Shown here piece after piece: positions 7,622 to 61,785 of a DNA stretch of 64,000 nt. The position numbers were made by a program, and so were the translations under genes. Location: the NCBI RefSeq assembly GCF_055900595.2, contig NZ_CM148325.1; one strand, written 5' to 3'. How positions within the stretch are numbered: position 1 is the first letter of the stretch; every line of letters begins with the position of its first letter. A model generated the notes under the pieces. That model saw nothing but the letters and a program-made list of their open reading frames with translations. It did not search any database and was not told the DNA's origin.

Positions 7622-8785
7622 ATGTTTGTAGAAGCATTGAAACGCCAGAACCCGGCACTGATTTCCGCCGCACTAAGATTGTGGCAACAGGGCAAGATCG
7701 CCCCGGACAGTTGGGTAATCGACGTGGATCAGATACTGGAAAACGGTAAGCGGCTGATTGAGACGGCGCGGCTTTACGGCATTGAACTGTATCTGATGAC
7801 CAAGCAGTTTGGTCGTAATCCGTGGCTGGCGGAAAAACTACTGGCATTGGGCTACAGCGGCATTGTGGCGGTGGATTACAAAGAGGCGCGAGTCATGCGC
7901 CGCGCCGGTTTGCCGGTGGCGCATCAGGGGCATCTGGTACAAATCCCTTGTCATCAGGTTTCTGACGCCGTTGAACAGGGCACCGACGTCATCACCGTGT
8001 TTACACTCGACAAAGCGCGGGAAGTTTCTGCCGCAGCGGTGACGGCCGGGCGGGTCCAGCCTGTGCTGCTCAAAGTTTATAGCGACGATGATTTTCTTTA
8101 TCCGGGGCAGGAGAGCGGTTTTGCACAGCATTCGCTGCATGAGGTGGTTGCTGAAATCCAGAAACTACCGGGGTTACATTTAGCCGGATTAACCCATTTC
8201 CCTTGCCTGCTATGGGATGAGGCTGCCGGGAAAGTTTTGCCAACACCGAACCTCCAGACGCTGGTCAATGCTCGTAACCAACTTCTGAAGTCTGGAGTTG
8301 TACTTGAGCAATTAAACGCGCCTTCAGCGACCAGCTGCACTTCGCTGCCATTACTGGCGGAATACGGTGTGACTCATGCCGAACCCGGCCATGCACTGAC
8401 GGGGACGATTCCGGCAAACCAGCAGGGCGACCAACCCGAACGTATCGCCATGCTTTGGCTGAGCGAAATTTCCCATCACTTCCGTGGCGACAGCTACTGC
8501 TACGGCGGCGGTTATTACCGTCGTGGTCACGCGCAACATGCGCTGGTGTTTACGCCAGAAAATCAAAAGATTACTGAAACCAATATCAAAACTGTGGATG
8601 ACAGCAGTATCGACTACACCCTGCCGCTGGCAGGCGAGTATCCGGTGAGCAGTGCAGTGGTGCTCTGTTTTCGCACGCAGATTTTTGTCACCCGTAGCGA
8701 TGTGGTGCTGGTGTCCGGTATTCACCGTGGCGAACCGGAAATCGTTGGTCGTTATGACAGTCTTGGAAGCTCTCTGGAGGCGTAA
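7622..8785 (+). CDS. yhfX: putative PLP-dependent enzyme (alanine-racemase-like fold), function unknown
   Basis: 387-aa ORF; stop overlaps yhfW start by 1 nt. Confidence 0.75.
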
Positions 8786-10011
8786 TGGCGCGATTTGTGG
8801 TGTTAGTGATTGATAGCTTTGGCGTAGGCGCAATGAAAGATGTCACGTTGGTGCGCCCACAGGATGCCGGGGCGAATACCTGTGGTCACATCCTGAGCCA
8901 ACTGCCGCATTTGCAGCTACCAACGCTGGAGAAGCTGGGGCTAATCAACGCATTAGGTTATGCGCCAGGCGATATGCAGCCGTCAGACTCCGCAACCTGG
9001 GGTGTGGCAGAGCTGCAACATGAAGGTGGCGATACCTTTATGGGGCATCAGGAAATTTTAGGCACGCGCCCGTTACCGCCGCTGCGGATGCCCTTTCGCG
9101 ATGTGATTGACCGTGTTGAACAGGCATTAGTCACCGCTGGCTGGCGGGTTGAGCGCCGTGGCGAAGAGTTGCAATTTCTGTGGGTTAATCAGTCGGTTGC
9201 CATTGGCGATAACCTCGAGGCGGATTTAGGCCAGGTCTATAACATCACCGCCAATCTCTCTGCGATCTCTTTTGACGACGCAATCAAAATTGGTCGTATC
9301 GTGCGTGAGCAGGTACAGGCCGGTCGGGTCATTACATTTGGCGGCCTGTTAACTGACAGTCAGCGCATTCTCGATGCCGCAGAAAGCAAAGAAGGGCGCT
9401 TTATTGGCATCAATGCGCCGCGTTCTGGCGCTTATGACAATGGCTTCCAGGTCGTACATATGGGCTACGGCGTCGATGAAAAAGTGCAGGTGCCGCACCA
9501 ACTGCATCAAGTGGGCGTGCCCACGGTGCTGGTGGGTAAGGTGGCAGATATTGTCAGCAATCCTTATGGCGTGAGCTGGCAAAACCTGGTGGATAGCCAG
9601 CGGATTATGGATGTCACCCTCGACGAATTTAACACGCATCCGACGGCGTTTATTTGCACCAATATCCAGGAAACCGACCTCGCTGGTCACGCAGAAGACG
9701 TCGCACGTTATGCTGAACGTTTGCAGGTCGTTGACCGTAACCTTGTCCGGCTTGTTGAGGCGATGCAGCCAGATGATTGCCTGGTCGTGATGGCGGATCA
9801 CGGTAACGATCCGACCATTGGTCACAGCCACCATACCCGTGAAGTAGTGCCAGTGCTGGTTTATCAGCAAGGGCTGGTCCACACGCAACTCGGTGTGCGC
9901 ACCACGCTTTCTGATGTGGGGGCTACCGTGTGTGAATTTTTCCGTGCGCCACCGCCACAAAATGGTCGCTCTTTTCTTTCCTCCCTCCGGTTTGCAGGAG
10001 ACACCCTATGA
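8785..10011 (+). CDS. yhfW: phosphopentomutase-like metalloenzyme, function unknown
   Basis: 408-aa ORF; N-terminus [11 protein letters not shown] resembles the DeoB metal-binding DSxGxG motif; overlaps php by 4 nt. Confidence 0.75.
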
Positions 10012-55732: not shown

Positions 55733-55822
55733 AGCCAGCCAATCTTTTGTATGTCTGTGCGTTTCCATTTGAGTATCCTGAAAACGGGCTTTTCAGCATG
55801 GAACGTACATATTAAATAGTAG

Positions 55823-56188
<366 letters not shown>

Positions 56189-58793: not shown

Positions 58794-59162
58794 ATGTGGT
58801 TACTTGACCAGTGGGCAGAGCGCCATATAGCAGAAGCGCAAGCGAAAGGTGAGTTTGATAACCTAGCTGGTAGCGGCGAACCATTAATCCTGGATGATGA
58901 TTCCCACGTGCCACCAGAATTACGTGCGGGGTATCGCTTGTTGAAGAATGCTGGTTGCTTACCGCCAGAACTTGAGCAACGGAGGGAAGCAATTCATCTT
59001 ATGGATATCCTCGAAGGTATCCGTCACGATGATCCGCAATATCAAGAGATTAGTCGTCGATTGTCATTACTGGAGTTAAAGCTGCGACAAGCAGGATTGA
59101 GTACCGATTTTTTACGCGGCGATTATGCTGACAAGTTGTTGAATAAAATCAACGATAACTAG
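58794..59162 (+). CDS. yhdN: DUF1992-family protein
   Basis: 122-aa ORF. Confidence 0.75.
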   Translation: MWLLDQWAERHIAEAQAKGEFDNLAGSGEPLILDDDSHVPPELRAGYRLLKNAGCLPPELEQRREAIHLMDILEGIRHDDPQYQEISRRLSLLELKLRQAGLSTDFLRGDYADKLLNKINDN

Positions 59163-59172
59163 TGGAGTATGT

Positions 59173-59598
59173 ATGTATCGCATTGGTGAGCTGGCAAAAA
59201 TGGCGGAAGTAACACCCGACACGATTCGTTATTACGAAAAGCAGCAGATGATGGAGCATGAAGTACGTACCGAAGGTGGGTTTCGCCTGTATACCGAAAG
59301 CGATCTCCAGCGATTGAAATTTATCCGCCATGCCAGACAACTTGGTTTCAGTCTGGAGTCGATCCGCGAGTTGCTGTCGATCCGTATCGATCCTGAGCAC
59401 CATACCTGTCAGGAGTCAAAAGGCATTGTGCAGGAAAGATTACAGGAAGTGGAAGCACGGATAGCCGAGTTGCAGAGTATGCAGCGTTCCCTCCAACGCC
59501 TTAACGATGCCTGTTGTGGGACCGCCCATAGCAGTGTTTATTGCTCGATTCTTGAAGCCCTTGAACAAGGGGCGAGTGGCATTAAGAGTGGTTGTTGA
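59173..59598 (+). CDS. zntR: MerR-family Zn(II)-responsive transcriptional regulator
   Basis: 141-aa ORF with N-terminal HTH (MYRIGELAKMAEVTPDTIRYYE) and C-terminal metal-binding Cys/His cluster. Confidence 0.9.
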   Translation: MYRIGELAKMAEVTPDTIRYYEKQQMMEHEVRTEGGFRLYTESDLQRLKFIRHARQLGFSLESIRELLSIRIDPEHHTCQESKGIVQERLQEVEARIAELQSMQRSLQRLNDACCGTAHSSVYCSILEALEQGASGIKSGC

Positions 59599-59653
59599 TT
59601 TTTTGCACTGGCGGGATTACACTCGCGCCGTTAAATAACCAACTGGAGTTTTT

Positions 59654-59872
59654 ATGAGCCGATATCAGCATACTAAAGGACAGATAAAAGATAATGCGAT
59701 AGAAGCATTGCTACATGATCCTTTATTCCGACAGCGTGTAGAGAAAAATAAGAAGGGGAAAGGTAGTTACATGCGGAAAGGAAAACATGGCAATCGGGGA
59801 AACTGGGAGGCCAGTGGCAAGAAAGTAAATCACTTTTTTACCACTGGCCTTCTGCTTTCAGGGGCTTTTTAA
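59654..59872 (+). CDS. arfA: alternative ribosome-rescue factor A
   Basis: 72-aa ORF; 9-bp inverted repeat GGCCAGTGG...CCACTGGCC inside its 3' region (about 59809-59849); stop shares nucleotides with the mscL stop. Confidence 0.8.
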
Positions 59873-60279
59873 GAGCGGTTATTCTGCTCTTTCAGCAAAT
59901 CACGAATTTCTGTCAGTAATACTTCTTCTTTAGTTGGCGCTGGCGCGGCTGCCGGTTCTTCTTTCTTACGATTCAGTTTGTTGATTAGCTTAATTGCCAT
60001 GAAGATGGCAAAGGCCACAATCAGAAAATCAAAGACGTTTTGAATGAAGACACCGTAATGCATCACAACAGCAGGGATATCCCCCTGCGCATCGCGTAGC
60101 GTGACAGCAAACTGTTTAAAATCGATCCCGCCAATTAATAAGCCCAGAGGAGGCATGATGATATCGGCAACCAGTGAAGAGACAATCTTCCCGAATGCCG
60201 CACCGATAATGACACCCACCGCCAAATCCACTACGTTCCCGCGCATCGCAAATTCGCGAAATTCTTTAATAATGCTCAT
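59869..60279 (-). CDS. mscL: large-conductance mechanosensitive channel
   Basis: 136-aa ORF, N-term [30 protein letters not shown]. Confidence 0.95.
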
Positions 60280-60408
60280 GTTATTCTCCCTATGAAGCCG
60301 ACAACCATAAGTCTAACAAATGTTAAGCCATTTTCCTGCCAGGAATGAATTTAATTAATCCTTGAGAATCAAAGGGAAATAATAAGGCGTCATAAGACGC
60401 CTTATTAA

Positions 60409-61785
60409 TTACAAAAAGAAAGGACTTGGCTGGAAGAGTCTTTCGACGTCGGTAATAAACTTTTTATCTGTGAGGAACATAATTACATGATCGCCTTGCT
60501 CAATACGCAGATTGTCATTGGCAATCATCACATCATTGCCGCGTACTACAGCACCAATAATCGTTCCTGGCGGTAGCTTGATTTCGTCAATGACTCTGCC
60601 GACAACGCGTGAGGTGCTTTCATCACCGTGAGCAACGGCTTCAATAGCTTCTGCTACGCCGCGGCGCAATGAGGAAACACCAACAATATCTGCTTTTCGC
60701 ACATGGCTAAGCAACGCAGAGATGGTCGCTTGTTGCGGTGAAATTGCAATATCGATCACGCTCCCCTGAACCAGATCCACATAAGCGCGACGCTGGATCA
60801 ATACCATCACCTTTTTCGCGCCCATACGTTTGGCGAGCATGGCGGACATAATATTGGCCTCGTCATCGTTGGTGACGGCAATAAACAGATCAACTTGATC
60901 GATGTGCTCTTCAGCCAGCAGTTCCTGATCCGATGCATCACCAAAAAAGACGATCGTATTCTGCAGCTTTTCCGCCAGCTCGGCAGCGCGCTGTTGATTA
61001 CGCTCGATGAGTTTGACGCTGTAATCTTTTTCCAGACGACGCGCCAGCCCTGCACCGATATTACCGCCGCCAACCAGCATGATCCGCTTATACGGTTTTT
61101 CCAGACGTTGCAATTCACTCATCACCGCGCGGATGTGTTGCGAAGCGGCAATAAAGAACACTTCATCACCAGCTTCAACAATGGTCGAACCTTGCGGACG
61201 AATAGGGCGATCGTGGCGGAAAATGGCTGCCACACGAGTATCGATATGCGGCATATGTTCGCGCATGGTCGAAAGTGCATTACCAATCAGTGGGCCGCCA
61301 TAATAGGCTTTAACCACAGCCAGGCTGACTTTACCCTCAGCGAAGTTCACTACCTGCAGCGCGCCGGGATACTCAATCAGTCGGTAAATATTATCGATAA
61401 CCAGCTGCTCTGGTGCGATCAGATGATCAATCGGTACAGCATCTGAATGAAATAGCTTATCGGCATCGCGCACGTAGTCTGGTGAGCGGATACGAGCGAT
61501 GCGATTAGGGGTGTTGAAAAGTGAGTAGGCTACCTGGCAGGCAACCATATTGGTTTCATCTGAACTGGTTACAGCAACCAGCATATCGGCGTCGTCGGCA
61601 CCTGCCTCCCGCAATACGCGTGGATGAGAGCCATGCCCCTGCACGACTCGCAGGTCAAATTTATCCTGCAAGGTCCGCAGACGCTCACCGTTGGTATCGA
61701 CAACAGTAATATCGTTGTTCTCGCCAACCAGGTTTTCCGCCAGTGTGCCGCCAACCTGGCCGGCACCCAGAATGATAATTTTCAT
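60409..61785 (-). CDS. trkA: Trk potassium-uptake system NAD-binding protein
   Basis: 458-aa ORF with two Rossmann GxGxxG motifs ([16 protein letters not shown]). Confidence 0.95.

Follow-up and report, generated by a model that had tools for sequence, protein, structure and literature searches.

The locus described here is, with a probability of about 0.9, the arfA gene of Escherichia coli, whose 3' part forms a known autoregulatory hairpin at which RNase III makes a non-stop mRNA under the control of tmRNA. It lies in a 64-kb stretch of DNA, referred to as the window, which corresponds to the aroK-to-fmt region of E. coli and is 99.5-99.9% identical to E. coli chromosomes in parts away from arfA. 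The present analysis demonstrated what the two genes are, that the hairpin is stable, lies exactly at the published coordinates and is conserved with covariation, and that the arfA and mscL stop codons overlap. Cleavage by RNase III, tagging by tmRNA and antisense action are carried over by analogy from the K-12 literature; cleavage and tagging should hold for the window as well, as they were established for a K-12 sequence that is identical at the relevant positions. arfA is the classic case of a gene that purposely makes a defective (non-stop) mRNA, and its product reports on the capacity of primary ribosome rescue. The hairpin mechanism, its conservation and the antisense relation of arfA and mscL are all already known. 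The mechanism was reportedly published in 2011-2012, Garza-Sanchez 2011, Chadani 2011 and Schaub 2012 being named as the primary papers, and conservation of the hairpin is said to have been published in 2012. The only mildly new points are descriptive, namely a minority allele whose stem is stronger, and a C·A mismatch that occurs in about half of the sampled Enterobacterales.

The assignment of the two genes is straightforward. The arfA product matches the ArfA profile PF03889 of Pfam with E=9.1e-26 and 89.5 bits (cutoff 25.5), residues 4-45 being aligned to positions 2-43 of the 44 in the profile. The ORF on the opposite strand, whose 3' end points towards that of arfA, matches the MscL profile PF01741 with E=2.4e-47. 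Upstream of arfA and on the same strand lie rplQ, yhdN and zntR, and downstream, on the opposite strand, mscL is followed by trkA. The 1.3-kb arfA region is found with exactly these annotations in 5,425 of 5,426 complete E. coli genomes. The arfA TAA occupies 59870-59872 on the plus strand and the mscL TAA is read from 59871 to 59869 on the minus strand. As the initial annotation had claimed, the two stops share nucleotides (59870-59871), and the coding sequences overlap by 4 nt. The RefSeq annotation of K-12, with mscL at 3438024-3438434 and arfA at 3438431-3438649, has the same overlap geometry. The coordinates of all features are collected in Table 1.

Table 1. Features of the arfA-mscL locus, with positions counted from the first letter of the 64-kb window.
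Feature	Position	Strand	Basis
arfA CDS, 72 codons + TAA, alternative ribosome-rescue factor A	59654..59872	+	ORF list, Pfam PF03889, RefSeq annotation of matching E. coli genomes
Codons 1-55, mRNA part predicted to remain after RNase III cleavage, encoding functional truncated ArfA	59654..59818	+	Pfam extent, literature, sRNA 5' end
Regulatory hairpin in arfA mRNA, 61 nt, codons 49-69 of 72	59799..59859	+	Inverted-repeat search, RNA folding, published nt 146-206, covariation
mscL 3' UTR (+1 to +64), complementary hairpin inside	59805..59868	-	Minus-strand fold, Morra 2023 Fig 2A legend
5' arm of 9-nt repeat, GGCCAGTGG	59809..59817	+	Sequence; codons 52-55
Putative RNase III cut 1, arfA nt 165|166, at C·A mismatch	59818..59819	+	K-12 mapping transferred: product nt 166-189, yrdG 5' end
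Putative 54-nt arfA-derived sRNA, yrdG equivalent, antisense to mscL 3' UTR	59819..59872	+	K-12 yrdG aligned; Morra 2023
3' arm of 9-nt repeat, CCACTGGCC	59841..59849	+	Sequence; codons 63-66
Putative RNase III cut 2, arfA nt 189|190, opposite arm	59842..59843	+	Published products transferred from K-12
CDS overlap TTAA, 4 nt, both stop codons inside; 59870-59871 common to both	59869..59872	.	Sequence; same in K-12
mscL CDS, 136 codons + TAA, convergent with arfA	59869..60279	-	ORF list, Pfam, annotation

The 9-bp inverted repeat that had been noted in the 3' coding region of arfA is present, but forms just the core of a larger stem, and the structure had thus been understated as a 9-mer. An inverted-repeat search gives arms of 28 nt (59799-59826 and 59832-59859), which form a hairpin of 26 pairs in three blocks: 59799-59802 with 59856-59859 (4 pairs), 59804-59817 with 59841-59854 (14) and 59819-59826 with 59832-59839 (8). 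The blocks are separated by the mismatches C59803/C59855 and C59818/A59840, and the loop spans the 5 nt of 59827-59831. Folding of the 3' region predicts a stable hairpin of -33.1 kcal/mol (z=-8.3), none of 200 dinucleotide shuffles being equally stable, and the main hairpin is still formed when the entire arfA mRNA is folded. It is located within the ORF, 3' of the functional N-terminal domain and 5' of the stop codon. By itself, the perfect 9-bp repeat is weak evidence, and the significance comes from the full stem and its conservation.

In a scan of the whole window with Rfam 15 at the gathering threshold, no family was matched at arfA. The sole match was Alpha_RBS at 55753-55864 (+) with 102.7 bits, which is the S4 autoregulatory leader of the alpha operon and is expected upstream of rpsM. 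Perfect 9-mer inverted-repeat pairs whose loops measure 3-40 nt number 50 in the window, grouped at 24 centres, and about 12 pairs are expected from shuffles. Of these centres (for example 58714, 60393, 57242 and 50026), the two that were placed lie at gene ends, 58714 after rplQ and 60393 after trkA. Between trkA and mscL, directly behind the trkA stop, a terminator-like hairpin of 12 pairs at 60380-60407 (-) is followed by TTTCCCTTTG; it is likely an ordinary trkA terminator.

The hairpin coincides to the nucleotide with a published regulatory element. In K-12, the arfA regulatory stem-loop has been described as nt 146-206 of the CDS (Morra et al. 2023, PMC10070815), which corresponds to window positions 59799-59859. 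Cleavage there frees a 54-nt sRNA that is subsequently processed to 24 and 30 nt, the RNase III products being arfA nt 166-189 (24 nt) and nt 190 to the stop (30 nt) (Morra et al. 2023, PMC10070815). The cut positions were drawn by coordinate transfer from this source, which is a secondary account, and from the RefSeq annotation of the K-12 ncRNA yrdG, an 'arfA-derived small regulatory RNA' at 3438431-3438484 that corresponds to window positions 59819-59872. Compared in this way, the mapped RNase III sites (59818|59819 and 59842|59843) both fall inside the stem and none falls elsewhere; they lie on opposite arms with an offset of about 2 bp across the helix, as expected of RNase III. Both sites are unchanged in the window because its sequence is identical to that of K-12 over 59801-59847 in the alignment. 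Since the sRNA begins at nt 166, the upstream arfA fragment would end at nt 165 (59818). This end at codon 55 agrees with the functional form of ArfA given in reviews, which consists of the N-terminal 53-55 residues and is translated from a non-stop mRNA. According to the same literature, truncated ArfA is SsrA-tagged and degraded as long as trans-translation is active.

Transferred to the window, the mechanism would run as follows. The arfA transcript would fold into the 26-pair stem-loop within codons 49-69, and RNase III would cut the stem on either arm, behind nt 165 and nt 189. Cleavage would strip the last 17 codons together with the stop codon and release the 54-nt fragment, which would then be split into 24 and 30 nt. 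Ribosomes translating the remaining arfA mRNA would reach its 3' end and stall. If available, tmRNA-SmpB would rescue these ribosomes, and the ArfA that it tags would be degraded. With trans-translation saturated or absent, ArfA(1-55) would escape tagging, accumulate, recruit RF2 and free non-stop ribosomes. The initial annotation had combined this tmRNA-controlled, RNase III-dependent reading with the overlap of the stop codons; the reading is supported, the hairpin standing at its published coordinates, but the stop overlap is no part of the non-stop mechanism.

Comparison across species supplies a further line of evidence for an RNA-level role. One genome per species was scanned, yielding 80 Enterobacterales arfA loci, which together with the window form an alignment of 81 sequences. 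The hairpins were extracted by codon anchoring and then aligned, and the structure of the window was counted on all 81 sequences. The hairpin is found at the same codons in 80 of 80 Enterobacterales loci. Under this structure 88.1% of the cells are paired, a value that drops to 39-58% once the 3' partners are shifted by 1-3 columns. Moreover, compensatory double changes occur in 18 of 27 pairs (149 cells), and the observed values were reached in none of 500 shuffles. Examples are GGCCAATGATAA/TTATCATTGGCC in Xenorhabdus, GGCTGGATATAA/TTATATCCAGCC in Budvicia and GGGCAGTGATAA/TTATCACTGCCC in Pantoea, in which amino acids are altered and pairing is kept; the corresponding peptides read, for instance, REAGYK in Budvicia and WEANDN in Xenorhabdus. 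A protein search additionally returned 730 ArfA homologues carrying PF03889, with lengths of 69-110 aa.

The inverted repeat could in principle be a product of chance or a by-product of protein coding that has no role at the RNA level. A perfect 9-bp repeat does arise in 114 of 5000 (2.3%) dinucleotide shuffles of arfA, and the arms encode the conserved residues EASGK and TTG. In an alignment of 14 sequences, E52-K56 (EASGK), F61 and T63-T64-G65 of the stem arms never vary, but past the stem the tail differs in sequence and length. Such invariance is odd for a constraint on protein, since the residues after 55 are absent from the mature protein; residues 56-72 are not part of it, yet T63-G65 do not change while the remaining tail drifts. 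The stability of the full stem (z=-8.3, matched by 0 of 200 shuffles) and the covariation (18 pairs with compensatory double substitutions, 0 of 500 shuffles) effectively refute a chance or coding origin, the probability of which is practically negligible. The constraint on the 3' region acts on RNA and not on protein.

The opposite strand has a structure of its own. Because the DNA is palindromic, the mscL 3' UTR folds too, and RNA folding gives a minus-strand hairpin of -28.9 kcal/mol (z=-6.4). The mscL UTR has been reported to reach +64 and to be cut by RNase III in vitro, and the arfA fragment has been described as an antisense RNA that lowers mscL mRNA and modulates MscL-dependent protein excretion (Morra et al. 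2023, PMC10070815). In the window, the UTR end at +64 falls at about 59805, at the foot of the minus-strand hairpin. Furthermore, mscL-arfA is listed among the E. coli excludons (ExcludonFinder 2025), and mscL is convergent and immediately downstream of arfA in 66 of 80 loci. The stable minus-strand fold, the position of the UTR end, the frequent adjacency and the excludon listing would all be in keeping with a palindrome that primarily serves mscL, as a terminator or 3'-end stabiliser, and is present in arfA only as a by-product of gene overlap. However, no mscL is located within 1.5 kb in the other 14 loci (Photorhabdus, Xenorhabdus, Pragia and Budvicia), and there the hairpin is fully kept at the same arfA codons, which contradicts a primary role for mscL and indicates that the hairpin serves arfA first. 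Its position in arfA is fixed, whereas its distance from the mscL stop ranges between an overlap of 65 nt and a separation exceeding 100 nt. Additionally, the G·U pairs of the plus strand become C·A mismatches on the minus strand, so that the stem is less stable there. An origin of the palindrome on the mscL side is therefore highly improbable.

The arrangement of the two stop codons varies as well. The 4-nt overlap is seen in Escherichia and Citrobacter, and the stops exactly abut in many Enterobacter, Klebsiella and Kluyvera. In Salmonella the genes overlap by 65 nt owing to a longer nominal arfA ORF, and gaps of 20-110 nt are found in Yersinia, Serratia, Pectobacterium and Pantoea. The stop-codon overlap is thus not conserved and has no part in how the non-stop mRNA arises; it is a feature of the separate, published antisense relation between arfA and mscL.

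The allele in the window differs from that of K-12 by 12 substitutions across the 219-nt arfA CDS, two of which are in the stem. Position 59800 is A in the window and G in K-12, and position 59848 is C in the window and T in K-12. Both substitutions keep pairing, with A-U in place of the K-12 G·U at 59800:59858 and G-C in place of G·U at 59810:59848. The stem of the window is about 3 kcal/mol more stable (-33.1 as compared with -29.9 kcal/mol). The C-terminal residue of ArfA is F72 in the window and C72 in K-12, and codon 70 is GGG in the window allele. Among 5,425 complete E. coli genomes, just 60 carry this exact 3' allele (59799-59872). The surrounding yhdN-zntR-arfA-mscL-trkA patch (58800-61700) is locally divergent, the best complete E. 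coli genome being at most 98.6% identical. An assignment of the window to a non-coli Escherichia, which so low a local value could suggest, was rejected in view of the 99.5-99.9% identity to E. coli genomes in other parts. For instance, identity to strain Z0117EC0005 is 99.9% over window positions 1-25000 and falls to 97.8% over 59100-60400. Within 58865-61669 about 110 sites differ from K-12, while rplQ just upstream is identical. This pattern suggests a recombined segment or a rare haplotype. Elsewhere in the window, yhfW (8785-10011, +) is an intact ORF of 408 aa, whereas in strain Z0117EC0005 the gene is annotated as a pseudogene with an internal stop.

A different route to the non-stop mRNA has also to be considered, in which the hairpin acts mainly as an intrinsic terminator within the arfA ORF, RNA polymerase halting inside the 3' arm or shortly past it, and makes the truncated transcript directly, RNase III being dispensable. 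Reviews state that the stem-loop 'can cause premature transcription termination' and that termination takes the place of RNase III in some species. The 3' arm and foot are U-rich (UUCUGCUUUC, 6 U in 10 nt), and in Yersinia, Serratia, Photorhabdus and relatives UUUU comes after the stem, with the stop at the foot of the stem (nt 201-207), which gives it a terminator-like look. In the E. coli hairpin, however, the run UUCUGCUUUC is base-paired in the lower stem and leaves no free tail, and the products mapped in E. coli, which measure 24 and 30 nt and have their 5' end at nt 166, come from RNase III, yrdG being annotated accordingly. Moreover, a consensus terminator scan did not call the main hairpin. 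The scan called only a weak alternative stem of 6 pairs at 59849-59864, which was rejected as a chance match to the consensus, because the main stem, with which it has to compete, is far more stable, and because it depends on a strain-specific codon, TTT (F72). Termination as the main function of the hairpin is accordingly quite unlikely for the arfA of the window and is rated a minor contributor, although RNase III may not be the sole route to non-stop mRNA, since the stem-loop can end transcription early according to reviews. RNase III cleavage is thus retained as the preferred reading.

The mismatch at the first putative cut site is distributed unevenly among the 81 sequences. The C·A mismatch (at the position of C59818/A59840) is present in 36 of them, all Enterobacteriaceae, and a U-A pair in 43. 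The arfA stop is located at nt 210 or earlier, at the foot of the stem, in 25 of the 43 U-A sequences as compared with 2 of the 36 mismatch sequences, a contrast that is confounded by phylogeny. The mismatch co-occurs with arfA ORFs that extend beyond the stem towards mscL. It could tentatively be regarded as an adaptation specific to Enterobacteriaceae, in which a hairpin of the terminator type (U-A closure, stop at the foot and U-run, as seen in Yersinia, Serratia and Photorhabdus) gave way to one of the RNase III type as the ORF drifted into mscL, with the stop overlap and antisense coupling being secondary, but this proposal is more doubtful than not by a wide measure. Schaub et al. 2012 may already contain the pattern of mismatch and stop position implicitly.

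Among known systems, the closest is K-12 itself, in which arfA (yhdL, b4550) and yrdG (b4846) share with the window the neighbours zntR and convergent mscL, the 4-nt overlap and the hairpin at nt 146-206. The architecture also agrees with that of the arfA/mscL crosstalk system, with tail-to-tail genes, hairpins on both strands and arfA nt 166 to the stop antisense to mscL. Morra et al. 2023 place E. coli in a non-overlapping 'proximal' class, whereas the K-12 RefSeq annotation and the window overlap by 4 nt; the discrepancy is probably a difference of annotation version. In other Proteobacteria, a hairpin at the same codons of arfA likewise gives a tmRNA-controlled non-stop mRNA according to reviews, but there it is the termination of transcription at the corresponding hairpin that truncates arfA (Schaub et al. 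2012, via reviews). The sampled Enterobacterales outside Enterobacteriaceae have a U-A closure where E. coli has C·A, and their stop is often at the foot of the stem and followed by a U-run. In E. coli, by contrast, the nominal arfA ORF enters mscL, continuing 13 nt past the stem, and the route that has been documented is that of RNase III.
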